43,293 bases of DNA from a phage. This document shows positions 21,276 to 42,995 of the stretch, one piece after another. Where the stretch lies: sequence record PV357169.1. One strand, given 5' to 3'. The position numbers and the translations under genes were made by a program. Below the pieces are notes generated by a model. It did no database searches, was not told the DNA's origin, and worked only from the letters and a program-made list of their open reading frames with translations. How positions within the stretch are numbered: the first letter of the stretch is position 1; the number at the start of each line of letters is the position of its first letter.

Positions 21276-21719
21276 ATGAAGTTAAAACACACTAGTAAAA
21301 CACCCAATACTCACTCACTAAAAGTTCTGCATAAGCACGATGATATTAGAGAAGCAGTGAGGGCTCTGCACGAACTTGGTCACGGCATTAGTCGGGGCCT
21401 TACCACAGAGCAACACTATTGGAGAGTACTAAAAAGTATACTGGGTAAACAGTATATACTAGGAGTCTATGACTCCCGGGGCGACTTAGTAGGTGCTGTC
21501 AGTTACTACCCAGAAGCTGTAGAGGACTGCCATTACGTAGAGCCTGTGTTGTACACAGACTTCTTCGTATTGAAACCAGGAAACAGTGAGGCAATGCTTG
21601 TAGTTATGAAGGGTCTGCAAGCAATCGCTAAGTGTATGCGAGCTGGGCGCATCGCCATTAGTCGCAATACATCGGATAATACTTACAAAACAACTTACCA
21701 TTTAGTGAGGTCAGCATGA
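21276..21719 (+). CDS. Hypothetical protein (147 aa)
   Basis: First ORF after the RNA polymerase. Confidence 0.6.
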   Translation: MKLKHTSKTPNTHSLKVLHKHDDIREAVRALHELGHGISRGLTTEQHYWRVLKSILGKQYILGVYDSRGDLVGAVSYYPEAVEDCHYVEPVLYTDFFVLKPGNSEAMLVVMKGLQAIAKCMRAGRIAISRNTSDNTYKTTYHLVRSA

Positions 21720-21979
21720 GCGGTGGATTAGGTAAACTGTTAGGTAAGGCCACGGATATGCTTGGCCTTACTGATAACGAAGGATTAGAACAACAGCAGC
21801 GCATGGCTGAGCAGCAGGCTGAGGCAGCAAAACAGCAGGCAGCCTTAGAGGCAAACAGTGCAGCTGACAATATTGCTGAGGTAAACCCCTCCGGCGCGGC
21901 CTCTGCATCTGCAGATGCAATTACGTCTGAGCAGAAGAAACGGCGACGGGCAGGGCAGAGCAACCCCCTGGGCCTGTAA
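21716..21979 (+). CDS. Small hypothetical protein, possibly virion-associated (87 aa)
   Basis: Gln/Ala-rich; immediately upstream of the portal gene. Confidence 0.5.
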   Translation: MSGGLGKLLGKATDMLGLTDNEGLEQQQRMAEQQAEAAKQQAALEANSAADNIAEVNPSGAASASADAITSEQKKRRRAGQSNPLGL

Positions 21980-21988
21980 GGAGGAAGC

Positions 21989-23584
21989 TTGGACTATAAA
22001 AAGACATTAGCGGAACTGTTCCTGGGGGACCAGGATGCTGGCGTACTGGATGCGTCAGAGAAGTTTGCTGAGTGGACGCTACCTACAATCTTTACCCGAG
22101 AGCTCTATACTGATGGGCGGCGTATGCAGCTTAGTCGAGACTATCAGAGTACAGGTGCTCAGCTGGTCAATACAGCAGCGACTAAAATTGTAGGTGCGTT
22201 ATTCCCGCAAGGTACTAGCTTCTTTCGGTTCTCTAAGAGTGCAGCCCTTGACAACTTTATTAGTAGTCTGGGAAGTTCTAGCACTGCGGAATCCCGTCTA
22301 TCCGAGGTAGAGAACACCGCCTCTCAGAAGGTGTTTGAGAAGGATGGGTATGCTGCTAAGCTTCAAGCTGTGAAGTTGCTGCTTATCACCGGGAACGCAT
22401 TGGAGTATATCGATGAAAGAACCGGGAAATCCATTATCTACTCGGTCCGTAACTTTACCGTTCGAAGGGATGGTAGCGGGAACGTGCTGCGACTCATTAT
22501 CAAGGAGCGCGCCAGCATCCAGGACCTCCCAGAAGACATTCAAAAAGCACACTACAACGGACGGGACCCCTACAGCGACATTGATATCTACACTGCCGCT
22601 TGTCGTAAGATTAAGCACCTTCCAACTGGAGAGGAAGCAGTAAGCTATGAGGTGTATCAAGAAGTTGATGGCCGTCGCCTAGGAGAGAGCAGCACCTACC
22701 CTGAGCTGGAACTTCCGTATAACGTATTGGTGTGGAACCTGGTTAATGGTGAGCACTATGGACGCGGTCTGGTGGAAGACTATGCGGGTGACTTTGCGCG
22801 GCTATCTGTGCTGACCGAAGCGTTGACCAACTACGAGATTGAGGCCTCCCGCCTTATCCCTATGGTTGATGCTAGTTCTGGACTGGATGTGGACGAGTTC
22901 TCTCAAGCCGAGACCGGTGAGGCAGTACAGGTTGGTGGTGGTGGTAGTAATGGTAACACCAAGTCCCCTGTAACAGCTTACGAGGGTGGTGCAGCTCAAA
23001 AGATTCAGTGGATTGCTAGCGACATTCAGATGCTTGAGCAGAAACTGGCTCGTGCGTTTATGTACACAGGCAATGCTCGACAGGGTGAGCGTGTAACTGC
23101 TTATGAGATTCGTCAGAATGCTAAAGAGGCAGAGTACGCTATGGGTGGTGGATTCAGCATCCTCAGTGACTCCTGGCTGCGTAAGCTCGCGTACCTGTAT
23201 ACTATCGTGGCGTATCCTAAGTTCAAGGTGTACCTCACCGAGGGTGTAGTGGATATCAACGTGATGGTAGGTACTGCAGCACTAGCTAAAGCAGCAGCAG
23301 CAGATAAACTGCTAGAAGCTACCCAGGCTATGCAGCTGGCTATTCCTGTGCTCAAACAGCTCACTCCTCGCTTTAATGAGGATGCATGCGTAGATTGGTA
23401 CTTGGATGCATACGGTATTGTAAGTGGACCGTTCATGCTCACAGAAGAGCAACTGCAAGAGAAGCAGCAAGTTCAAGATAATGCAGCGGCGGCATCAGCA
23501 GCACAAGCACAGTCGCAGGTACAAGATCTCCAGGCAGCGGATCCTACCGTAGCAGGACAACAACTAGGCCTGTTACCGGGCTAA
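21989..23584 (+). CDS. Portal (head-tail connector) protein, T7 gp8-like
   Basis: GERVTAYEIR...GGGFSILS and GEHYGRG segments parallel recalled T7 gp8; TTG start with AAGGAGG RBS. Confidence 0.8.
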   Translation: MDYKKTLAELFLGDQDAGVLDASEKFAEWTLPTIFTRELYTDGRRMQLSRDYQSTGAQLVNTAATKIVGALFPQGTSFFRFSKSAALDNFISSLGSSSTAESRLSEVENTASQKVFEKDGYAAKLQAVKLLLITGNALEYIDERTGKSIIYSVRNFTVRRDGSGNVLRLIIKERASIQDLPEDIQKAHYNGRDPYSDIDIYTAACRKIKHLPTGEEAVSYEVYQEVDGRRLGESSTYPELELPYNVLVWNLVNGEHYGRGLVEDYAGDFARLSVLTEALTNYEIEASRLIPMVDASSGLDVDEFSQAETGEAVQVGGGGSNGNTKSPVTAYEGGAAQKIQWIASDIQMLEQKLARAFMYTGNARQGERVTAYEIRQNAKEAEYAMGGGFSILSDSWLRKLAYLYTIVAYPKFKVYLTEGVVDINVMVGTAALAKAAAADKLLEATQAMQLAIPVLKQLTPRFNEDACVDWYLDAYGIVSGPFMLTEEQLQEKQQVQDNAAAASAAQAQSQVQDLQAADPTVAGQQLGLLPG

Positions 23585-23598
23585 CAACAGAGGTATAA

Positions 23599-24471
23599 AT
23601 GGACGGCGTAGAAACCACTCAAACTAACGTAACAACTACCCAGGTAGAGAACCAAGGCGGCCCTAAGATTCCGGGCCTGGGCGCTCCTCTTAACGCCCCA
23701 AATAATCAGGGTGTGCAGGATGCGCAGATCTCTATGCAGCAGCAACAGGGCAAAGATTCCCCTGCACCTGCAGTAGTTCCGGCAGTAGCTCCAGCACAGA
23801 TTCCTCTGGATATCGAAGCCCTAAAAGCGGCCCTTAATGACAAGGGTGGCGAAAGCGCCAAAGAGCAGCCTCAGGAGCTGGCTCAAACAGGCAACCCGAC
23901 GATTGATGCCGGTGTAGCGATGTTGAAGCAAGTCTCTGGGTTAACTGACTCGGACATGGTGCGGGCACTTAGTAAGGCCCTGGAGTATCAGGACCCTAAC
24001 CTAATCGATACGGCCTTCATCAAGGAGCGCTTCGGTGAGCACGCTGCGTATGCAGAGCTGCTGGCTAAGGCGTATCTTGAAGACCAGGTGGGACAAGCCA
24101 CTAAGGCTGTACAGGAAGCGTATGACCTCGTAGGCGGGAAGGAGAATTGGGAGGTAGCAGCGCAGCTGTTTAATTCCAAGGCCCCAGAGCCTCTGCGTAA
24201 GGCTGCACGAGTCCTGGCTGATTCTGGTGAGCTTAAACAGGCAGCAGAGTTAGTGGCAGGTTACTGCCGTGATATGGGTCTTATCAAGACCTCAAATCCA
24301 TTAGTACGTGGTGTCCCTGGCAACAATGCCTTGTCCGCTGCGGACTTCAAAGTAGAGTATGCTAAGCTGCGTCAGGAGGCAGGGAACCGAAGCCTGGAAT
24401 CTCAACAGTTCAGTCAACGTTATCATGATTTACTCGCACGCCGTGAAGCCGGTAAACGCGTAGGTCTTTAA
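23599..24471 (+). CDS. Scaffolding protein (putative)
   Basis: Position between portal and capsid; size and acidic, helical-looking composition. Confidence 0.55.
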   Translation: MDGVETTQTNVTTTQVENQGGPKIPGLGAPLNAPNNQGVQDAQISMQQQQGKDSPAPAVVPAVAPAQIPLDIEALKAALNDKGGESAKEQPQELAQTGNPTIDAGVAMLKQVSGLTDSDMVRALSKALEYQDPNLIDTAFIKERFGEHAAYAELLAKAYLEDQVGQATKAVQEAYDLVGGKENWEVAAQLFNSKAPEPLRKAARVLADSGELKQAAELVAGYCRDMGLIKTSNPLVRGVPGNNALSAADFKVEYAKLRQEAGNRSLESQQFSQRYHDLLARREAGKRVGL

Positions 24472-24495
24472 TATCATTTAAAAGGAAAGTAATAC

Positions 24496-25515
24496 ATGGC
24501 AGATACCATTTATAAAGCTGGTGACACTCGTCCGCATTGGGGTGGAGCGGCGTCCGACGTAGATATTCACCTGGAAGTGTACCAGAATGAAGTGGATACC
24601 CGCTTCCAGTACCAGGCGCTGTTCCTGGGTCTCTCTAGCCAGCGCTCTATCAGCGGCTCTAACACCTACCGTATCGACCGCCTGAATACCTCTGCGGTGA
24701 AGGGTCGTCGTTCTGGTGAAGCGCTGGATAGCACTCCGGTCCGTAACGATAAGATGATTATCGTAGTGGATACGGTGCTGTACATCCGTAACCCAATCGA
24801 CTACCAGGATGACTGGACTGGTCCGGACTTCCTCTCTGAGATGGGTCAGAACAACGGTTCCGAGTTCGCGGAGACCTTCGACCAGGCGCACCTGATTCAG
24901 CTCATCAAAGGCCGTTCCTGGGTTGCACCAGCGCACCTGAAGCCTGCGTTCAACGACGGTATCGAAGTAGGTGCTTCTATCCTCGTAGCGGGCAGTACTC
25001 CGGATAAGCAGCTGACTCAGGCTGAGATGGAAGCCAACGCCATGAACATCAACCTGGCTCACAAGGCTGGTATTGATGAACTCATCAAGCGTAAGACTCC
25101 GCTTATGGATATGATTACTCTGGTGGACGTGGATACCTACTCCCGACTGCTGGAGCATCCAAAGCTGTTAAATCTTGAGTTCGGCGCAACTAACGACGAC
25201 GGTTACAAGAACCGCCGAGTTGTGAAGATGAACGGTGTGCCGGTAGTAGAGTGCACTGAGTTCCCGACCGAAGCTGGTACACACCCGCTGGGTACAGCTT
25301 ACACGGTCACTGAGGATGATGCGAAGTGCCGCATGGTGACTTTCAGTAAGTCCAAGACCTTGGTGACGGTAGAAGCTAAACCGTTCACTTCTCGTATCTG
25401 GGATGACCAGCGCGAGTTCAACAACGTTCTGGACTGCTACGCGATGTACAACATCGGTCTGCGTCGTCCAGATACCGCCGCAGTGACTAAGTTCACCTTC
25501 ACCACCAAAGCCTGA
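24496..25515 (+). CDS. Major capsid protein
   Basis: 339 aa ORF in the T7 gene 10 position; followed closely by a strong terminator. Confidence 0.8.
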   Translation: MADTIYKAGDTRPHWGGAASDVDIHLEVYQNEVDTRFQYQALFLGLSSQRSISGSNTYRIDRLNTSAVKGRRSGEALDSTPVRNDKMIIVVDTVLYIRNPIDYQDDWTGPDFLSEMGQNNGSEFAETFDQAHLIQLIKGRSWVAPAHLKPAFNDGIEVGASILVAGSTPDKQLTQAEMEANAMNINLAHKAGIDELIKRKTPLMDMITLVDVDTYSRLLEHPKLLNLEFGATNDDGYKNRRVVKMNGVPVVECTEFPTEAGTHPLGTAYTVTEDDAKCRMVTFSKSKTLVTVEAKPFTSRIWDDQREFNNVLDCYAMYNIGLRRPDTAAVTKFTFTTKA

Positions 25516-25526
25516 TTGGAGGTTAA

Positions 25527-25724
25527 ATGGCAGTAATCGCCGTGTTCGGTCTGGAGACTCTCAAGGCCAACGCTGCTCAACGTGAGGCGGTAAAAGCCGC
25601 CTCCGAGGTAGCGAAGCACATTCAAGTAGGTTCGGTCGAATCTGGCCGCAAAGCTACTAAGCGTACCCGCAAAGCTGTTGATGCAGTAGCCGACGCAGCA
25701 GCTGGTACAGAAACTAAAGAGTAA
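25527..25724 (+). CDS. Small hypothetical protein between capsid gene and terminator (65 aa)
   Basis: Own GGAGG RBS 12 nt after the capsid stop. Confidence 0.4.
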   Translation: MAVIAVFGLETLKANAAQREAVKAASEVAKHIQVGSVESGRKATKRTRKAVDAVADAAAGTETKE

Positions 25725-25727
25725 TAT

Positions 25728-25770
25728 GCGCCCCTGGTGCCTTCGGGTGCCGGGGGCTTTTTTTTTTTGT
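25728..25770 (+). terminator. Rho-independent terminator after the capsid module
   Basis: GC-rich hairpin with TTCG loop (GCGCCCCTGGTGCC-TTCG-GGTGCCGGGGGC) followed by T11. Confidence 0.8.
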
Positions 25771-25813
25771 CCCTGTCTTAAAGGTCCTAGGGGTCTTTAA
25801 TAGAGGAACAAAT

Positions 25814-26374
25814 ATGAGAGAGTTAGACGCCATTAATTTGACGCTGGAAGCCCTAGGGGAATCTCGCGTTATGGATATCAACACTTCAAACCCTAGTGCG
25901 GGGTTAGCACGTTCTGCGCTCGCGCGTAATCGCAGAGGGTTGCTCAGTACTGGTTACTGGTTCAACGTAGTTGAGCGGGAGGTTACCCCTACAACTGATG
26001 GTTTTATTAAAATTCCATGGAACCATCTAGCTGTGTATGATGCGTGCTCCAACAATAAGTACGGTGTACGTGATGGAAACCTTTATAACCTAATCGAGCA
26101 GGACGAGTACTTCGATTCTCCTGTTAAGATTAAGGTGGTGCTGGACCTCAACTTTGAGGATCTTCCAGAGCATGCCGCCATGTGGATTGCAAACTACACT
26201 GCTGCACAGGTGTACCTGAATGACCTAGGCAGTGACGGCAACTACGCCAACTACGCTGCAGAGGCAGAGCGGTACAAGTCCCTGGTGTTGCGAGAGCATC
26301 TACGGAACCAGAAGTACAGTACCAGCAAGACCAGATTCGCACGTCGTATTCGTCGTGCACGCTTCATGATTTAA
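25814..26374 (+). CDS. Tail tubular protein A (T7 gp11-like)
   Basis: Size and position; some resemblance to recalled T7 gp11. Confidence 0.65.
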   Translation: MRELDAINLTLEALGESRVMDINTSNPSAGLARSALARNRRGLLSTGYWFNVVEREVTPTTDGFIKIPWNHLAVYDACSNNKYGVRDGNLYNLIEQDEYFDSPVKIKVVLDLNFEDLPEHAAMWIANYTAAQVYLNDLGSDGNYANYAAEAERYKSLVLREHLRNQKYSTSKTRFARRIRRARFMI

Positions 26375-26383
26375 GGAGAGGTT

Positions 26384-27478
26384 ATGGCACAATCATTAGA
26401 AGGCACCATTCAGAGTTTGCTCCAGGGTGTGTCCCAGCAGATTCCAAGAGAGCGCCAGCCCGGGCAACTTGGGGCTCAACTGAACATGCTCAGTGACCCG
26501 GTATCCGGAATACGTAGACGACCCCCAGCAGAGATTGTATGGGAGAGTAGTATCGACAATCCGGACCTAGACTCCCTGTATACAGAATACGTTGAGCGTG
26601 GTTCCGACGGTAGGCACCTGCTGATTAACACCAGTAACGGTAATTGGTGGCTATTGTCCAAGGATGGCAAATCCATTGTAAACAGCGGGAACGACCCGTA
26701 CTTCGTAACAACGGTAGGGCAGACCTCTATCCAGACTGCGAGTATTGCTGGGTTGACCTACATCCTGAATACAGAGATGGCTCCGAATGCAACTGTGGAC
26801 AACACTGGTCGAATTGACCCGAGCACCACGGGATTCTTCTACATCAAGACAGTGGCCTTCCAGAAGCGCTGGGAGGTTACTGTATCCTGGACAGGTGGTT
26901 CCGTATCAGGTTATTACAACGCCCCTGATGCAAGTCACGGCGAATCCGCAGAGTGGGTTTCCGCGCCGTATGTAGTTAGGGCCTTAATCGACGGGGATCC
27001 TAATGGTCAGGGTATAGGCTCAGCTATTACGGCGGCTGGTGGAAGTATAAGCCGTTTCGAGGGGTATATGTATATATCCGGACTGCCTAATCTCGTAGTT
27101 AGTACATCTGCTGGAGACACCTACGCCGTGGCATCTGGGCAGAGTAGGGTTCATCAAGAACAGGACCTACCTGCACAGCTACCAGCACAGGCTCACGGTA
27201 CGATGTGCCAAGTGGGTACAGCTTCAGCTGAGACAGCGTGGTATCAGTTCGACTATAATTCCCGCACCTGGTCAGAGGTTGGGGCCTACGGTAGCATCTC
27301 CAAAATTACTAACATGCCCCGGGAACTGGCATCGGATGATAACATCATTGCTCGTGAATGGGAGGGGCGTCTTGCTGGGAACGACGAAAACAACCAGGAC
27401 CCTGGGTTTATTGAGAATGGCTACATTACAGGTATAGCAGCATTCCAGGCCGTCTGGTGCTGCTTAGTGGTAGTGTAG
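26384..27478 (+). CDS. Tail tubular protein B, N-terminal fragment (frameshifted gene)
   Basis: 364-aa ORF that ends in an implausible tail (AVWCCLVVV); continues in the -1 frame from ~27415. Confidence 0.6.
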   Translation: MAQSLEGTIQSLLQGVSQQIPRERQPGQLGAQLNMLSDPVSGIRRRPPAEIVWESSIDNPDLDSLYTEYVERGSDGRHLLINTSNGNWWLLSKDGKSIVNSGNDPYFVTTVGQTSIQTASIAGLTYILNTEMAPNATVDNTGRIDPSTTGFFYIKTVAFQKRWEVTVSWTGGSVSGYYNAPDASHGESAEWVSAPYVVRALIDGDPNGQGIGSAITAAGGSISRFEGYMYISGLPNLVVSTSAGDTYAVASGQSRVHQEQDLPAQLPAQAHGTMCQVGTASAETAWYQFDYNSRTWSEVGAYGSISKITNMPRELASDDNIIAREWEGRLAGNDENNQDPGFIENGYITGIAAFQAVWCCLVVV

Positions 27479-28761
27479 TGGACATGTCAGCATCTGGGCT
27501 GTATCAGCGATTCTATCGCTCTACAGTAACCTCTCTGCTGGATACAGACCGTATCAGCATTAGCTCGGCATCTGCTCAGGATTCCGTGTACCGTACAGCT
27601 ATACAATTCAACCGAGACTTGGTTCTGTTTGCAAATAGCATGCAGGCTGTAGTGCCTGGGTCAGTAGTGCTTACTCCAACTAACGCCAGTATTAGCATCA
27701 CTAGCACCTACGAATGTGACAGCCGAGTAACGCCAGTAATGGCTGGGCAGACTGTGATTTACCCGAACAAGCGCAACAGCAGCTACGCGGGTATTCTGGA
27801 GCTTATCCCATCCCCGTATACTGCCTCACAATATACTACGCAGGATGCGACTGTGCACCTCCCTCGGTATATCCATGGGAGGGTGCTGCAGATGCAAAAC
27901 TCCAGTGTCACTAATATGGCGTTTGTGCGTATGTCCGGACAGCGCAAGAGTCTGCTGGTATATGAGTTCATGTGGGGTGGACAGGATGGTGGTAAGGTGC
28001 AATCAGCCTGGCACCAATGGACGTTCCCGTATAATATTCTGAGCGTGCAGGCACTTGAAGATGAAGTGTTCCTGTACCTGCAAGGGCCAAGCCCGGGCAA
28101 TAAACTTCTGATTTTGTCTATGGACCCACGCGAGGGGTACAACCTCGGCAGTGAGTATACAGATGCGTACTCGGACTTGCAGACGCAAGTTACTGTAAGC
28201 GCCGGAGTGTTAACAGTGCCCGCAGTATTGCGCCCAGCGGGTTGGGCGGATACGTACAAAGAGGACCTAATCCTCACGTACCCAGCCAACAATCCTATGG
28301 GACCTACCGAAGTAGGGTTACAGGATATTGCCGGTACAAATCAGCTCAGAGTCGTACGTGGTGTTCCTGATGGGCAGTATATCCTGGGTCGCAGGTACAA
28401 TAGCGCATTCACTCTGACTACCCCAGTACTTCGGGATCAGAATGATAAGTTAGTTGGTAGCGGGCACGTGCGTTTGTTGCGTCTGGATGTAGCAGTACGT
28501 AACTCCGGGCACTTTGATGTGCATGTAACGGATACGCCCCGGGATGTTGACTGGAGTGGAGAACTCACAGGTATCTTGATGAACTCCAAGGAGCTGACGT
28601 TGGGGCAGACCTTGCGTATGGACTTGGCTACCATCACGGTGCCGTGCCGCACTAACGCGGATACTACGGAAATCACTTTGTATACCAAGGGCTCCCAGGA
28701 GCTGAACGTGCTGGATATCTCTTATATCCTGCGCTACAACCAACGCAGACGGAGGATTTAA
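27457..28761 (+). CDS. Tail tubular protein B, C-terminal fragment
   Basis: 434-aa ORF; the two fragments sum to ~798 aa, about the size of T7 gp12. Confidence 0.6.
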   Translation: MLLSGSVVDMSASGLYQRFYRSTVTSLLDTDRISISSASAQDSVYRTAIQFNRDLVLFANSMQAVVPGSVVLTPTNASISITSTYECDSRVTPVMAGQTVIYPNKRNSSYAGILELIPSPYTASQYTTQDATVHLPRYIHGRVLQMQNSSVTNMAFVRMSGQRKSLLVYEFMWGGQDGGKVQSAWHQWTFPYNILSVQALEDEVFLYLQGPSPGNKLLILSMDPREGYNLGSEYTDAYSDLQTQVTVSAGVLTVPAVLRPAGWADTYKEDLILTYPANNPMGPTEVGLQDIAGTNQLRVVRGVPDGQYILGRRYNSAFTLTTPVLRDQNDKLVGSGHVRLLRLDVAVRNSGHFDVHVTDTPRDVDWSGELTGILMNSKELTLGQTLRMDLATITVPCRTNADTTEITLYTKGSQELNVLDISYILRYNQRRRRI

Positions 28762-37365: not shown

Positions 37366-37668
37366 ATGGCAGGGGCGGCTAAACGCAGCCGTCTCTCGGA
37401 GCTGCATCGCATGTTCACAGAGGCTTTGATTGAAGAGATCAAACAGTCTAAAGAAGATGAGGTGCCGCTCCCGGCCGCAGATAAGTCAGTCATCGCTAAA
37501 TTCTTGAAGGATAATGATATCACTGCGGATGCAGATTCCGAGGAGATGCAGGACCTTCGTGATGAATTTGATGATGAACTAGCGGCACGCAGAGAGGCGC
37601 GTAAACAAGAAATTTTAGGTAAGATTAGTGGGTCTGACTCTGAGGATTTACTAGAAGGAATTGTCTAA
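37366..37668 (+). CDS. Terminase small subunit (putative)
   Basis: 100-aa acidic protein immediately upstream of the large terminase. Confidence 0.5.
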   Translation: MAGAAKRSRLSELHRMFTEALIEEIKQSKEDEVPLPAADKSVIAKFLKDNDITADADSEEMQDLRDEFDDELAARREARKQEILGKISGSDSEDLLEGIV

Positions 37669-39524
37669 TGGTATCGGCGAAGACTGCGCGAAGACTGCGC
37701 ATGCTCAACCAGAAACTTGCCGGCTATAGTGCGAATCCGCGCAGTATTCCCAAAGAGGAGCGCGAGGATATCGCCATGATGATGGCGGCTACCCTCGGCA
37801 ATTTTAGGGAGTTCGCATATATAGGTATGCGCTTCCTGGGCTTTACGCTCACGGAGATGCAAGCCGATATTGCAGAGTACATGCAGAAAGGTCCTAGGAA
37901 GCGCATGGTGGCTGCACAGCGTGGTGAGGCTAAATCTACACTAGCTGCGCTGTATGCTGTCTGGCGGCTCATCCAGGACCAATCCTGCCGTATACTGATT
38001 GTATCCGGTGCGGAGAAGCAGGCGTCCGACGTTGCGAACTTAATCATTCGTATGCTGGAAACCTGGCCTCTGTTGTGTTACCTGAAGGCCGACCCTACTC
38101 GTGGGGACCGTACTTCATTTGAAGGCTATGACGTCAACTGCGACTTGAAACCGCTGGATAAGTCTGCCAGCGTAGCTTGTGTCGGTATCACTGCATCCCT
38201 GCAAGGGAAGCGTGCTGACCTGTTGATTCCAGATGATATTGAGACCACCAAGAACGGTTTGACACAAACCCAGCGTGAGCAGTTGCTGATGATTTCGAAA
38301 GACTTCGCGGCTATCTGTACGCACGGGGATACGCTGTACCTGGGTACACCACAGACCAAGGACAGTATTTATAAAACCCTGCCGGGGCGTGGTTTCGAGG
38401 TCCGAGTGTGGCCTGGACGCATCCCGTCAGTTGAAATGGAAGAACGATATGGAAGTACACTTGCTCCTTATATACTGCAGCTCATTGAGCGGGGTTATAA
38501 ACGAACCGGGTTCGGAGTAGATGGGACGTTAGGTGAGAGCACTGACACCGGTCGATACGACGAGGATGCGCTGATTGAGAAGGAGCTGGACTTCGGCCCA
38601 GAGGGTTTCCAGCTGCAATACATGCTTGACACAACCTTGTCTGATCAGATGCGCACCCGTATCAAGTTGTCGGATATGCTCGTGTACTCTGGTAGCCTAG
38701 ATTCCTCTCCTGAGACCTTCTCCTACATTGCGGACCGTCGGTACTTGTACCAGCATGAGCATGAGGGGATTATGGGGCAGCAGATGTACTCCCCGGCATT
38801 CTATGGAGATATGCATCTACCATATCAGCATAAGGTGCTAGTGGTGGACCCAGCGGGTTGTGGTGGGGATGAAGTGTCCTACGCTGCAGGCGGTGCTGCT
38901 AACTCGTACATTCACTTATTCTCCGTTGGGGGTTTCCAAGGAGGTGTAAGCACTGAGAATATTGATAAGCTCATTGATTTGTGCGTAGAGTTGGACATCT
39001 CAGACATGGTGGTGGAGAGTAACATGGGGCACGGTACTGTGTCTATGCTGATCCTGAACCGCCTAAGAGAGCGTCGCCTTGCTGGTATTGGTGTGCGCGA
39101 CATCAACAACACCACGCAGAAAGAGCGCCGTATTATCGACACAATCAGCCCTGTAACTCGACGCCATCGCCTGGTGGTGCATGAGCGTGCTATTCAAGAT
39201 GATATTGGGACTTGTATGCTCTACTCCCGAGACCGTCGGTGGTTGTACTCTGCGTTCGCACAGCTCGCAGGTATTACGTACGACCGAGGGAGTTTAGCGA
39301 AGGATGACCGAGCAGACGCCATCGCTATGATGGTGGCAGTACTGAATGGACACCTGGTAGAAGACGAGAAAGTAGTAGCTGAGCGTGAGTCCGAGAAGAT
39401 GGCCCTGGCCTTCATTGAGAACCCACTGGATTGGGCACAGAGTAAATTGTCTAAGGGACTTCGCGGTGTAGCGGCTCGGTTGCAGAACCGTGGCAGAGGT
39501 AAACAACATAGAGGAAGAAGATAA
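37668..39524 (+). CDS. Terminase large subunit (T7 gp19-like)
   Basis: ACVGITASLQGKRADLLIPDDIE and RILIVSGAEKQASDV closely parallel recalled T7 gp19 segments. Confidence 0.9.
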   Translation: MVSAKTARRLRMLNQKLAGYSANPRSIPKEEREDIAMMMAATLGNFREFAYIGMRFLGFTLTEMQADIAEYMQKGPRKRMVAAQRGEAKSTLAALYAVWRLIQDQSCRILIVSGAEKQASDVANLIIRMLETWPLLCYLKADPTRGDRTSFEGYDVNCDLKPLDKSASVACVGITASLQGKRADLLIPDDIETTKNGLTQTQREQLLMISKDFAAICTHGDTLYLGTPQTKDSIYKTLPGRGFEVRVWPGRIPSVEMEERYGSTLAPYILQLIERGYKRTGFGVDGTLGESTDTGRYDEDALIEKELDFGPEGFQLQYMLDTTLSDQMRTRIKLSDMLVYSGSLDSSPETFSYIADRRYLYQHEHEGIMGQQMYSPAFYGDMHLPYQHKVLVVDPAGCGGDEVSYAAGGAANSYIHLFSVGGFQGGVSTENIDKLIDLCVELDISDMVVESNMGHGTVSMLILNRLRERRLAGIGVRDINNTTQKERRIIDTISPVTRRHRLVVHERAIQDDIGTCMLYSRDRRWLYSAFAQLAGITYDRGSLAKDDRADAIAMMVAVLNGHLVEDEKVVAERESEKMALAFIENPLDWAQSKLSKGLRGVAARLQNRGRGKQHRGRR

Positions 39525-39901
39525 TGGCATCAATCATCGCGGCTAAAGCTGCGGACGTCCAGTACGCTATTGTAGGTAAGAGCCAGAACCTCGAGAAAGA
39601 GGTGGCCCCGGATTATAATGCCGGGTTTATTGGTACGGGTGCACTGGATAAACTCAACGCTTTCTTTACCTACATGGAGTCCCAGGGATACTCGGCTACA
39701 GCTACTGGTGAGTCTTTTAAGGCTGACGGCACCTTGCAGGCTCGTCTATTTTCTATGCTATTCCAACTTAGCAAGACAGGTTATGTAGCACTCACTGGTA
39801 CCGGTATGCCCTTAGGTGAGGACTCTGGTACTGACTTCGACAATTCATTCAAGGCCCTACAGGCGGCTTTCGTTGCAGCTACTAATGCTGCTGCGGGATA
39901 A
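39524..39901 (+). CDS. Hypothetical protein (125 aa)
   Basis: ORF starting one base after the terminase stop. Confidence 0.5.
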   Translation: MASIIAAKAADVQYAIVGKSQNLEKEVAPDYNAGFIGTGALDKLNAFFTYMESQGYSATATGESFKADGTLQARLFSMLFQLSKTGYVALTGTGMPLGEDSGTDFDNSFKALQAAFVAATNAAAG

Positions 39902-39914
39902 TAGGAGAATCTAT

Positions 39915-40097
39915 ATGGCAATTGCAAAAGCGACCCAAGTGCAACAGCAGGAGCTGCTGCGTCAGCTGAACATTCTCGGTAAGGATCTGTATGCTATCCT
40001 TACCCAGCCACAGGATGTAGTCCAGACCGGCGCAGCGTTCGACGCTAAGATTGCTGCCCTAGAAACAGCTATTACCGCTGTGAAGTCGGCTAGCTAA
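39915..40097 (+). CDS. Hypothetical protein (~60 aa)
   Basis: AGGAGA RBS upstream of ATG 39915. Confidence 0.45.
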   Translation: MAIAKATQVQQQELLRQLNILGKDLYAILTQPQDVVQTGAAFDAKIAALETAITAVKSAS

Positions 40098-40745: not shown

Positions 40746-41340
40746 GGTTATAGCAGCACTCGCCGGGGCGACCATGCTCGGCGGAGCTATTACTGAGGTA
40801 GTCCAACACAACGAGGGCTTGAGCCTTACAGCATACAAAGACAGTGCAGGCATCCCTACAATCTGCTACGGGGAGACAAAGGGCGTCAAAATGGGCCAGA
40901 GAGCCACACTGAGCGATTGTCAGAAGCAACTGATAGAATCAGCAGGGGAGCATGCAAAGGCTCTTGACGGGCTTCCTATGCAGCTCTCTGACGTAGCCTT
41001 AGTTGGGTCCATAGACTTCATTTATAACGTAGGCGTAGCTAGCTTCAATGGCAGCGCCGTGAAACGGCATCTCAAAAACCTTGATTATGCAGCGGCTGGA
41101 AAGGCTGTGCTGGACTGGCGTTACATTAGTAAGTACCAGCAGAAGTCCCCAGGAACTGGTTGGGTTTATAAGGGTAGCAACCGCTGGATTTTCGACTGCT
41201 CCCAGTATATTAACGGGCAGCGCAATAAGGTATGCTGGGGCCTATGGGAACGTAGGCAGTGGCAAGCAAAGGCTATTGGTAATCGGTATGACTCATTGGA
41301 GTCTGCTGTTAATGCACTCATGAAAGGACAGGGGATATAA
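40729..41340 (+). CDS. Endolysin, T4-lysozyme-like muramidase with N-terminal SAR-type hydrophobic segment
   Basis: Catalytic pattern E-x8-D-x5-T (NEGLSLTAYKDSAGIPTICYGET); N-terminal VIAALAGATMLGGAI. Confidence 0.7.
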   Translation: MSLRTRVIAALAGATMLGGAITEVVQHNEGLSLTAYKDSAGIPTICYGETKGVKMGQRATLSDCQKQLIESAGEHAKALDGLPMQLSDVALVGSIDFIYNVGVASFNGSAVKRHLKNLDYAAAGKAVLDWRYISKYQQKSPGTGWVYKGSNRWIFDCSQYINGQRNKVCWGLWERRQWQAKAIGNRYDSLESAVNALMKGQGI

Positions 41341-42995
41341 TGGCACTTACAAATTTAATTTACAATGCGAGCAAGAATAATGACCGTGAACAGTGGCGTC
41401 GTAGTCTTGTAGAGGCAGGGTTAACACTTGTTGATGGTAGCTTTGAAGAGGGTGCTACTGCAAACAGTAAAACTGATGCTGTTTGGCATATTGCCGGTGG
41501 TCAGTGTTATACGTGGGATGCCACATTCCCTAAAACCGTTCCTGCTGCCTCAACCCCAGAAACTTCTGGCGGTGTTGGTTCAGGCGCATGGGTGAGTGTT
41601 GGCGATGCAAGTTTGAGATCGGACCTCTCAAGCACAGACGTCGGCAGAGGTGCCTCTTTAATTGGGACAACTGACGGTAGTAATGTGCAAGAGGCTTTGG
41701 ATGATATTAATAACTCAATATACCAGGACCCTCTTACCAAATGGCATCTTGGTGGTACGCTAAAAATAAAGCAGGGAGTGTATGATGTATCCTCAGCACT
41801 TACCCTCGATTATGGCAATTATGATGCTTCGTTTATAGGCTCTCCTGGTGTTCGCGCTCATTACGAAGGCGAGAACATGGCAGAAACCATCTTTAATTGT
41901 CAGGTTGCTGATTTTAACTTGAAGATGCTAGGAGATACCGTTGGGGCGACACAACGTGTACACGCATATGATTATCTGGGGAACATTACGCTTAAAGGTT
42001 CGGGATCGTCTTATGGTCTTGTTGTATCCAGTAAAGCATATACTAAGTTAGAGAACATAGTATCTTACGGACATACCAACGGGGAAGGTTTACGAACAGA
42101 TGGCGTTTTAACGTCGGAACTGGATAATGTGTACCTGCAGGCGAATCGTATTGGGTGGCGAGCGGTTAATTATGATGATGTGTCAGAACTTAATGCAATT
42201 ACGGTCAACAGATTAACGGCAAGCCAGAATACACAATGGGGTATTCTTGGCGACAGATGGGGTGCAGGGACTACCATCAACAGCCTTACCTGTGAGGGTA
42301 ACGGCACGCAAGGTAATGCTGGAACTGGCGGTATGCAGATTGCCGTGAACGGTCTTAATGGATCATGTGCTTTGGTGCTTAACAACCCATATTTCGAGGG
42401 TAATGCCGGTGGTTCTGACCTTGCCATTGATAACACGGGAACGCGCCCAGTAACCGTAATTATTAACGGCGGCGGCTTCCATCGTGTTAGTAATACGGCT
42501 TACACCATAAACAACTTAAATATTACAAGTTCTGGCGGGGGTAAAGTAACCGTAATTCTCAATGGTACGACATTCCAGAGCGCGGGTTCTTATGCCCCAA
42601 GCAGCACGCGACCGTTCTGGGTTACTGGCGCTAATTGTGAAGTAATCGACATTGGCTGCACATTCACGGAGCAAACCAGCAAGAATACTTCTGTCTCTGC
42701 TGGAAGTATTCCTCGTTCTGGAAGGATTAGTGCCGCGGGTGGCATAGGAATTGCGCCTGGTGTTTCATCAGTAAACGTAGTAGCTACGGGGGTATATGAT
42801 GTAGTTTTTTCTCATGAATTATCTACATATCTTGATGGGTATGTGGTACAGATAACGCCAATATCGGCGGGTGACTCCGTGGCTTGTGATGTTGAATATT
42901 TCAGCACAACCCGATTCAGGGTTACATTGAGGAACACTGTCAGCGGCGCTGGCATAGCGAGTGCATTCGCTTATAGTGTCACAAGGCTTGTATAA
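41340..42995 (+). CDS. Tailspike protein, probable polysaccharide depolymerase (beta-helix-like)
   Basis: 551 aa, Gly/Asn/Thr-rich repetitive segments typical of parallel beta-helices; right-end position. Confidence 0.6.
   Translation: MALTNLIYNASKNNDREQWRRSLVEAGLTLVDGSFEEGATANSKTDAVWHIAGGQCYTWDATFPKTVPAASTPETSGGVGSGAWVSVGDASLRSDLSSTDVGRGASLIGTTDGSNVQEALDDINNSIYQDPLTKWHLGGTLKIKQGVYDVSSALTLDYGNYDASFIGSPGVRAHYEGENMAETIFNCQVADFNLKMLGDTVGATQRVHAYDYLGNITLKGSGSSYGLVVSSKAYTKLENIVSYGHTNGEGLRTDGVLTSELDNVYLQANRIGWRAVNYDDVSELNAITVNRLTASQNTQWGILGDRWGAGTTINSLTCEGNGTQGNAGTGGMQIAVNGLNGSCALVLNNPYFEGNAGGSDLAIDNTGTRPVTVIINGGGFHRVSNTAYTINNLNITSSGGGKVTVILNGTTFQSAGSYAPSSTRPFWVTGANCEVIDIGCTFTEQTSKNTSVSAGSIPRSGRISAAGGIGIAPGVSSVNVVATGVYDVVFSHELSTYLDGYVVQITPISAGDSVACDVEYFSTTRFRVTLRNTVSGAGIASAFAYSVTRLV

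Follow-up and report, generated by a model that had tools for sequence, protein, structure and literature searches.

The window analyzed here, a 43,293-nucleotide stretch of phage DNA, is an essentially complete 43.3-kb genome of a KP34-like podovirus (Autographiviridae, Slopekvirinae, genus Drulisvirus). Genes on the + strand follow the order portal (21989-23584), scaffold (23599-24471, matching phrog_1018), major capsid protein (24496-25515), a small ORF of 65 aa (25527-25724), adaptor or tail tubular protein A (25814-26374), nozzle, internal core proteins, fibre and terminase, after which come two small decoration genes, a lysis cassette and the tailspike. The fibre and the large terminase (a 618-aa ORF, 37668-39524) were assigned by gene order alone; in the lysis cassette, a database match was obtained for the endolysin only, with the holin and spanin assigned from sequence features. 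The 1.8 kb surrounding the small ORF share 95-96% identity with Escherichia phages EC22.5-2 and Minorna as well as Klebsiella phage KPV811.

The capsid gene (339 aa), which is the upstream partner of the small ORF on the same transcript, matched phrog_267 ('major head protein', E 1e-94) as well as the PDB chains 23sf_I ('major capsid protein gp17', E 1e-214) and 8eld_A (HRP29 Gp37, E 4e-173). Its TGA stop (25513-25515) is followed by an 11-nt spacer on the + strand (25516-25526, TTGGAGGTTAA) that carries a Shine-Dalgarno GGAGG (25518-25522), leaving 4 nt to the small-ORF ATG (25527). A TAA triplet (25524-25526) sits in the small-ORF frame immediately 5' of this ATG. The spacer TTGGAGGTTAA was unchanged in 13 of the 13 Drulisvirus loci first examined; in two more divergent phages it reads TTGGAGGTTCA, and there TCA, not TAA, precedes the ATG. 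The earlier note had described a separate Ala/Lys-rich ORF of 65 aa with its own GGAGG ahead of a terminator, and every one of these features was recovered in place.

The terminator (+ strand, 25730-25768) starts five nucleotides past the end of the small ORF and consists of a hairpin (25730-25757) with a G+C-rich stem of 12 bp and a UUCG loop, followed by a run of 11 T residues (25758-25768). The hairpin has a folding energy of -25.8 kcal/mol (z -4.4), and none of 200 shuffled sequences was equally stable. It ends the portal-scaffold-capsid-small ORF expression unit before the tail genes begin. The same terminator was published in 2015 for KP34, SU503, SU552A, NTUH-K2044-K1-1 and F19 (PMC4411677 Table 3), and in KP34 it was placed between KP-KP34p43 and KP-KP34p44 (PMC4411677). 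In relatives that carry a homing endonuclease, the insertion lies past the terminator, where the adaptor gene starts, and the capsid-small ORF-terminator unit is intact.

The small ORF is a core Drulisvirus gene

The small ORF belongs to phrog_7403 ('unknown function'; E 1.3e-35 over residues 1-59), which was its sole PHROG match, and is the orthologue of KP34 gp43 (KP-KP34p43). It is thus an already catalogued gene and not a new one. In addition to the profile match, it shares with the KP34 gp43 family the position between capsid gene and terminator upstream of tail tubular protein A, the length, and the constrained residues 1-50. Most records, among about 250 Drulisvirus genomes, annotate it as a hypothetical protein; one GenBank record labels it a 'putative transcriptional regulator', an automatic and unsupported name. 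When phage records were searched using tblastn, the small ORF was present in 249, compared with 254 that encode a capsid protein at least 80% identical to that of the window, and it was intact even in records that do not annotate it. Truncation was considered for records matching residues 1-40 only and rejected, as the ORF is intact in these records and the partial matches are alignment artefacts. A collection of 5.8 billion proteins yielded 202 homologues, every one of 59-65 aa and from contigs of ~43 kb.

Further database searches returned little else for the 65-aa protein. Only one cluster was recovered when 1.84 billion cluster representatives were searched exhaustively with an HMMER profile, Pfam gave only a sub-threshold hit to DUF6894 (E 0.21), NCBIfam gave no match, a phmmer search of PDB sequences matched no chain and produced noise only, and an Rfam scan of positions 24000-26500 identified no RNA family. 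Judged by these Pfam, NCBIfam, PDB and Rfam results, homology beyond the genus assigns nothing further to the small ORF. No DNA-binding or enzymatic motif was found in the protein.

Selection on the small ORF was assessed using 12 distinct orthologous DNA sequences. Codon positions 1, 2 and 3 hold 8, 6 and 30 variable sites, respectively (binomial p 2.5e-6), and pN/pS is 0.16 in the frame of the small ORF vs 3.8 and 1.5 in the two shifted frames; the capsid gene, used as a control with a codon alignment from the same genomes, gave 0.065. Constraint is unevenly distributed, with pN/pS rising from 0.14 over codons 1-50 to 0.39 over codons 51-59. An alignment of 48 homologues produced the same picture at the protein level, with 30 invariant columns among residues 1-50 and a final 10-15 residues that differ in both sequence and length. 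An RNA-element reading of the region was rejected, as no Rfam family was matched and the codon-position signature contradicts it. A chance ORF is effectively excluded by the PHROG match, the 202 homologues, the 249 records and the coding-selection signature. The small ORF is a genuine coding gene under purifying selection, and a core, genus-wide late gene of Drulisvirus.

Translation of the gene has been observed in a relative. LC-MS/MS of purified particles of phage fHe-Kpn01 identified its orthologue g43 (89% identical) from at least two unique tryptic peptides (PMC7291057). The earlier note had looked to mass spectrometry for the protein in virions or infected cells, and the orthologue in these particles answers to that; a location on the capsid does not follow from it. 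In the same study, 29 of 56 gene products satisfied the 'virion-associated' definition, and these include the scaffolding protein, the peptidase homologue g13, g14 and the metallophosphoesterase g24 (PMC7291057). Since a scaffold and enzymes appear in the same list, detection proves expression and co-purification, not a structural place. Similarly, the scaffolding protein of phage Ar-KM was positive by mass spectrometry and invisible in the maps (bioRxiv 10.64898/2026.05.18.726046). Virion gels of KP34 and other Kp34likevirus members were run by SDS-PAGE, where a protein of 6-7 kDa is not resolvable (PMC3082699, PMC4411677), and the KP34 depolymerase paper contains no virion proteome. Two peptides of the small-ORF protein, HIQVGSVESGR and AVDAVADAAAGTETK, can be named for targeted PRM.

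The product is a 6.7-kDa protein with a pI of 9.6, in which Ala accounts for 16 of 65 residues (25%) and Lys plus Arg for 11 of 65 (17%). Its charge map divides into three parts: a near-neutral helix with a hydrophobic N-terminus (residues 1-40), a basic cluster of about +6 (RKATKRTRKA, residues 41-50) and a variable acidic tail (residues 51-65). The conserved N-terminal helix reads MAVIAVFGLETL.ANAAQREA. AlphaFold2 modeled the monomer with low confidence (pLDDT 67, pTM 0.33) as one continuous helix spanning residues 2-62, as would be predicted if the peptide needed a partner in order to fold.

Relation to the capsid and decoration proteins

The T7 minor capsid protein 10B is reportedly a -1 frameshift extension of 10A (Condron et al. 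1991, as cited in PMC3082699). Expression of the small ORF in the same manner, fused to the C-terminus of the capsid protein, was weighed against the frame geometry of the window. The frame of the small ORF is indeed -1 with respect to that of the capsid gene. This frame is closed by stops at 25488 and 25524, which limits any extension by a -1 shift to 3-4 residues. The +1 frame is closed at 25583, and a ribosome reading through the capsid TGA meets a TAA six codons on. Neither a slippery X_XXY_YYZ heptamer nor a homopolymer of at least five nucleotides was present in the last 400 nt of the capsid gene (25100-25515). On these grounds we rejected fusion of the two products, whether through readthrough or through a shift to the -1 or +1 frame, and the earlier note's description of a capsid ORF that ends cleanly, with no frameshift extension, holds. 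A capsid extension would account for an additional 42-kDa band in KP34 virions, for which the authors suggested a frameshift (PMC3082699), and the two divergent phages with TCA in place of TAA before the ATG lack the stop adjacent to it. Against this, the sequence of the window makes the junction peptide impossible, the small ORF has its own strong ribosome binding site and ATG, conserved in every relative, and the spacer measures 9, 11 or 12 nt in other genera, which means that the frame relation between capsid gene and small ORF is not conserved. We regard such an extension as extremely improbable, and the T7-like frameshift proposed for the 42-kDa band has no support in the window sequence.

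Decoration was the second capsid-associated role to be weighed, as the earlier note had proposed that the product may be a decoration or minor capsid protein. A PDB search with the small and late proteins of the window as one joined query identified two decoration genes at 39.5-40.1 kb, both on the + strand. One is of the 'paw/spike' type (125 aa, 39524-39901) and matched 23sf_A ('decoration protein gp6', E 1.5e-54) and 8eld_M (HRP29 Gp47, E 3.6e-40). The other is of the 'claw/staple' type (60 aa, MAIAKATQ..., 39915-40097) and matched 23sf_G ('decoration protein gp5', E 1.9e-25) and 8eld_H (HRP29 Gp48, E 4.8e-19), both over the full length. Entry 23sf, in which gp6 (124 aa) and gp5 (60 aa) form the decoration, comes from a phage near-identical to the window; capsid entries of relatives include 8eld (Shigella phage HRP29, Buco) and 8vb0 (Pectobacterium phage PhiM1), as well as 9s9b/9sys. 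The same staple pair is known as alpha-paw/alpha-claw in PhiM1 (PMC11440229), as gp47/gp48 in HRP29 and as gp54/gp55 in the phiKMV-like phage Ar-KM (bioRxiv 10.64898/2026.05.18.726046).

The models of the near-identical phage (23sf/23sg/23sh) comprise capsid gp17, decoration gp6 and gp5, portal gp19, gp20, core gp12 and gp11, adaptor gp14 and nozzle gp13; our literature search did not find the paper behind these entries. Between capsid and adaptor, the numbers gp16 and gp15 are missing. Because relatives with a homing endonuclease carry it past the terminator, these two numbers almost certainly correspond, by the numbering, to the small ORF and an HNH gene. No chain for the 65-aa ORF was found in 23sf, 8eld or any other PDB entry, a statement that concerns deposited models and not maps. 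HRP29 offers a second, independent case, as its gp38, which occupies the same slot between capsid gene and terminator, has no PDB chain while gp35, gp37, gp39, gp40, gp47 and gp48 were all built. Absence from deposited models is not proof of absence from the virion, since internal, asymmetric and low-occupancy proteins routinely go unmodeled.

A role on the outer capsid surface, as an ordered decoration or minor capsid protein, would fit a gene that lies beside the capsid gene and is co-expressed with it, a product whose small size and helical character recall the known staple proteins, and its appearance in particles by mass spectrometry. The inter-capsomer sites, however, are occupied by gp5/gp6 in 23sf and by gp47/gp48 in HRP29, that is, by two other products that are both encoded in the window, and neither the small ORF nor HRP29 gp38 has a chain in the PDB. 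Furthermore, BLASTP produced no alignment between the 65-aa ORF and either decoration protein at E values up to 100, and hhalign gave a probability of 0.9% for the small ORF against the staple decoration proteins. An ordered decoration role is very unlikely and already largely refuted. The parts of the earlier proposal that stand are that the ORF is a gene separate from the capsid gene and that it is translated, as seen by LC-MS/MS of its orthologue; the decoration role falls to the two other gene products that have been modeled.

The same slot in related phages and a proposed role

The arrangement of capsid stop, short spacer with a ribosome binding site, small ORF and terminator is common to Drulisvirus, Koutsourovirus, Bucovirus/HRP29, PAS7-like and VP93-like Vibrio phages, with slot ORFs of 72 aa in Koutsourovirus, 94 aa in HRP29, 66-70 aa in PAS7-like phages and 42 aa in VP93-like Vibrio phages. 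The order is different in Aeromonas phage PS and Friunavirus, where small ORFs are found downstream of the hairpin. Phimunavirus CB5 and the phiKMV-like MPK6 have the terminator only and no slot ORF, and since these phages assemble related capsids, capsids of this type do not in general depend on the function of the small ORF. A common layout is seen among the slot proteins, which begin with a MA[VL][IL]..[FI] N-terminus, continue with a helical middle part and a cluster rich in Lys, and end in an acidic stretch. Between the small ORF and HRP29/Buco gp38, 10 of the first 21 residues are identical (48%, pairwise E 3e-5). The start MA[VL][IL]A..F recurs among Koutsourovirus-type slot ORFs, the remainder of which diverges; hhalign of the Drulisvirus and Koutsourovirus slot profiles aligned 10 residues with a probability of 4%, giving homology between the two no statistical support. 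Similarity among slot ORFs survives at the N-terminus only and is significant for Buco gp38 alone.

Taken together, we tentatively propose, with somewhat less than even confidence, that the small-ORF product is an accessory protein of the head module that acts during assembly or maturation and is lost from, or disordered in, mature virions. The ORF is translated on its own from its strong GGAGG, 11 nt past the capsid stop, and, being placed ahead of the single strong terminator between head and tail genes, would lie on the most abundant late mRNA. Its translation is probably coupled to that of the capsid gene, and the amount of product is probably comparable to that of the capsid protein; both expectations derive from gene layout only, namely the position on the capsid transcript, the strong Shine-Dalgarno sequence and the 11-nt gap. 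The N-terminal helix may then dock on part of the head, be it the capsid protein, the scaffold or the portal, during assembly or maturation, as suggested by conservation, with the helix kept across genera and the charged tail variable. In mature virions the product would be mostly lost, or present at low occupancy or in disordered form, and such loss or disorder would make it positive by mass spectrometry and absent from cryo-EM models. An assembly role is favored because this profile (a head-module gene whose product is seen by mass spectrometry and unseen by cryo-EM) is that of a scaffolding protein. Docking partner and assembly role are both proposals of low confidence. The small ORF was rejected as the scaffolding protein itself, having no profile match of that kind, and phrog_1018 is matched instead by the canonical scaffold at 23599-24471.

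Two further explanations place the protein elsewhere. It could be a component of the mature virion that symmetric cryo-EM does not see, either as a basic internal protein on the packaged DNA or the inner wall of the capsid, or in a few copies near the portal and core. The LC-MS/MS detection in purified fHe-Kpn01 particles, the strongly basic cluster at residues 41-50 together with the pI of 9.6, expression with the head module at a presumed capsid-like level, and absence from models that were built with imposed symmetry are all consistent with this. The mass spectrometry argument is weakened by the scaffold and enzymes found in the same list, and a general DNA-binding reading by the HRP29 slot protein, which is acidic (pI 5.9). 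Moreover, the 87-aa ORF at 21716-21979, with its match to 23sg_m ('gp20', E 5.5e-40), already serves in a role like that of T7 gp7.3. We consider a hidden virion component possible but doubtful. Were such a component ejected with the DNA, it might resemble the small T7 head proteins gp6.7 and gp7.3. A gp7.3/gp6.7-like factor has been defined as a small helical ORF just upstream of the portal gene whose product is modeled with the portal and core (bioRxiv 10.64898/2026.05.18.726046). The small ORF was rejected as a candidate for this class, as it is the 87-aa ORF that occupies the place ahead of the portal gene.

Alternatively, the product may have a non-structural function, such as late gene regulation, lysis timing or action on a host target, and use the capsid transcript for abundance and lateness. 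Homology to structural families is undetectable, co-purification in mass spectrometry is non-specific, and one record carries the regulator name mentioned above, an unsupported automatic label. The position in the head block, however, is fixed across genera even where similarity is almost gone, which is more typical of a morphogenetic partner, and DNA-binding or enzymatic motifs were not found, making a non-structural function rather unlikely. A broader extension of the head-module proposal, which we also judge unlikely, would unite the Slopekvirinae slot ORFs (Drulisvirus gp43, HRP29 gp38, and the Koutsourovirus and PAS7 types) in one fast-evolving family of capsid-coupled peptides, with a MA[VL][IL]..FG..L.AN.A.R.A helix that docks on the capsid protein or portal and charged tails that act inside the head. 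These tails might serve in DNA or charge management during packaging, or the protein might be ejected with the DNA; if so, an abundant head component would have been overlooked by current cryo-EM atlases.

Few phages are used more widely as candidates for Klebsiella phage therapy than those of Drulisvirus, and for this universally conserved Drulisvirus gene the practical value lies mostly in correct annotation: labels such as decoration or minor capsid protein should be avoided, the true genes for decoration being those at 39.5-40.1 kb. If the product proves to be capsid-bound or packaged, it would add a further part to near-complete structural atlases and possibly a small handle for capsid engineering.

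Comparison with known systems

The observation that prompted this analysis is accurate but ordinary, and nothing points to a new kind of system. The small ORF resembles the coding capacity behind T7 10B in lying directly 3' of the capsid gene, ahead of the main late terminator and in the capsid -1 frame. It differs in being an independent cistron with its own ribosome binding site and ATG, from which fusion is barred by stops.

The staple proteins (HRP29 gp48/gp47, PhiM1, Ar-KM gp55/gp54 and 23sf gp5/gp6) are comparable in that the claw type is ~60 aa long, helical and Ala-rich with an MA- start. In contrast to the small ORF, which follows the capsid gene, their genes follow the large terminase gene, and they have been modeled on the capsid, show no sequence or profile similarity to the small ORF and are both encoded in the window alongside it. 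Their fold is a helix-turn-helix hairpin; the low-confidence monomer model of the small-ORF product (pLDDT 67) is one continuous helix. With the scaffolding protein (23599-24471), the small ORF shares a head-module gene, a helical product, detection in particle preparations by mass spectrometry and absence from virion models. There is, however, no sequence similarity between the two, the small ORF is about 4-fold smaller, and the canonical scaffold is present.

The slot ORFs of HRP29 (gp38) and of the Koutsourovirus and PAS7 types share the 9-12-nt spacer with a ribosome binding site and the terminator that follows. These proteins (66-94 aa) are unalignable to the small ORF past the N-terminus, and HRP29 gp38 is acidic overall compared to the basic small-ORF product. 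KP34 gp43, fHe-Kpn01 g43 and Minorna CPT_Minorna_017 are the same gene as the small ORF, with 89-98% identity over residues 1-56 or 1-65. The window's 65-aa tail variant (…AAAGTETKE) is typical of the branch infecting E. coli and Shigella. Otherwise, the small ORF agrees with the KP34 gp43 family in its capsid-terminator position and its 60-65 aa size class, and differs from it in nothing of substance.

Capsid decoration and other structurally solved proteins

Two genes near the right end of the window are the true capsid decoration genes. The first (39524-39901, 125 aa) is of the paw/spike type and matches gp6 in PDB 23sf, a model of a near-identical phage, as well as Gp47 of Shigella phage HRP29 (Buco), whose capsid has been solved. 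The second (39915-40097, 60 aa) is of the claw/staple type, matches gp5 in 23sf and Gp48 of HRP29, and is easily overlooked because the mechanical ORF call begins upstream at a GTG (39816). Just 5' of the portal gene, an Ala/Gln-rich ORF of 87 aa (21716-21979) corresponds to chain m, 'gp20', of PDB 23sg (E 5.5e-40), in agreement with how a preprint on the phiKMV-like phage Ar-KM (bioRxiv 10.64898/2026.05.18.726046) describes ejection and assembly factors of the T7 gp7.3 type. For the terminal tailspike (41340-42995, 551 aa), the match is to 'Putative tail protein gp13' of PDB 9occ, from residue ~27 on (E 7.6e-288); phages of this type therefore also have a solved structure for their receptor-binding or depolymerase protein.

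A split nozzle gene

The gene for the nozzle, tail tubular protein B (26384-28761), is present as two overlapping ORFs (26384-27478 and 27457-28761), both of which are covered by one uninterrupted alignment with 'nozzle gp13' (793 aa) of PDB 23sh. At about 27448-27449 the window has CCAGGCC, one G fewer than the CCAGGGCC found in Minorna, SFN6B, KPV811 and others. An error of sequencing or assembly in this essential gene is the probable cause of the split; the alternative is a defective variant.

Junctions flanking the small ORF in related phages

In SFN6B, an insertion of ~455 bp (locus L003, 2795-3251) lies 3' of the terminator at the start of the adaptor gene, tail tubular protein A, equivalent to about 25820-25824 of the window. 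ZH5, phiHAO78-1, Kpn13 and KMI6 give a similar two-piece match, the insertion site being mapped in SFN6B only. The records of ZH5 and phiHAO78-1 label the insertion an HNH/homing endonuclease. The capsid gene, small ORF (25527-25724 in the window) and terminator of these relatives remain contiguous with one another. On the capsid side, the codon preceding the small ORF's ATG is TCA rather than TAA in Klebsiella phages pKP-M212-2.1 and henu-LMZ (L023 and L024), and because of this replacement the capsid -1 frame may stay free of stops over a stretch that starts about 25 nt ahead of the capsid stop and continues into the small ORF. Neither phage shows an evident slippery site at this junction. 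The small ORF of henu-LMZ is intact yet carries no annotation.

The post-capsid slot in other genera

The genera of Acinetobacter phage B5 (Friunavirus) and Aeromonas phage PS use the same slot directly after the capsid gene and arrange it differently from the window: the hairpin comes first, immediately behind the capsid gene, with the small ORFs 3' of it, two in B5 (L016, 2388-2878; 61 and 97 aa) and one in PS (L015, 2367-2573; 68 aa). One Friunavirus small ORF in this slot is annotated as 'tail protein'.
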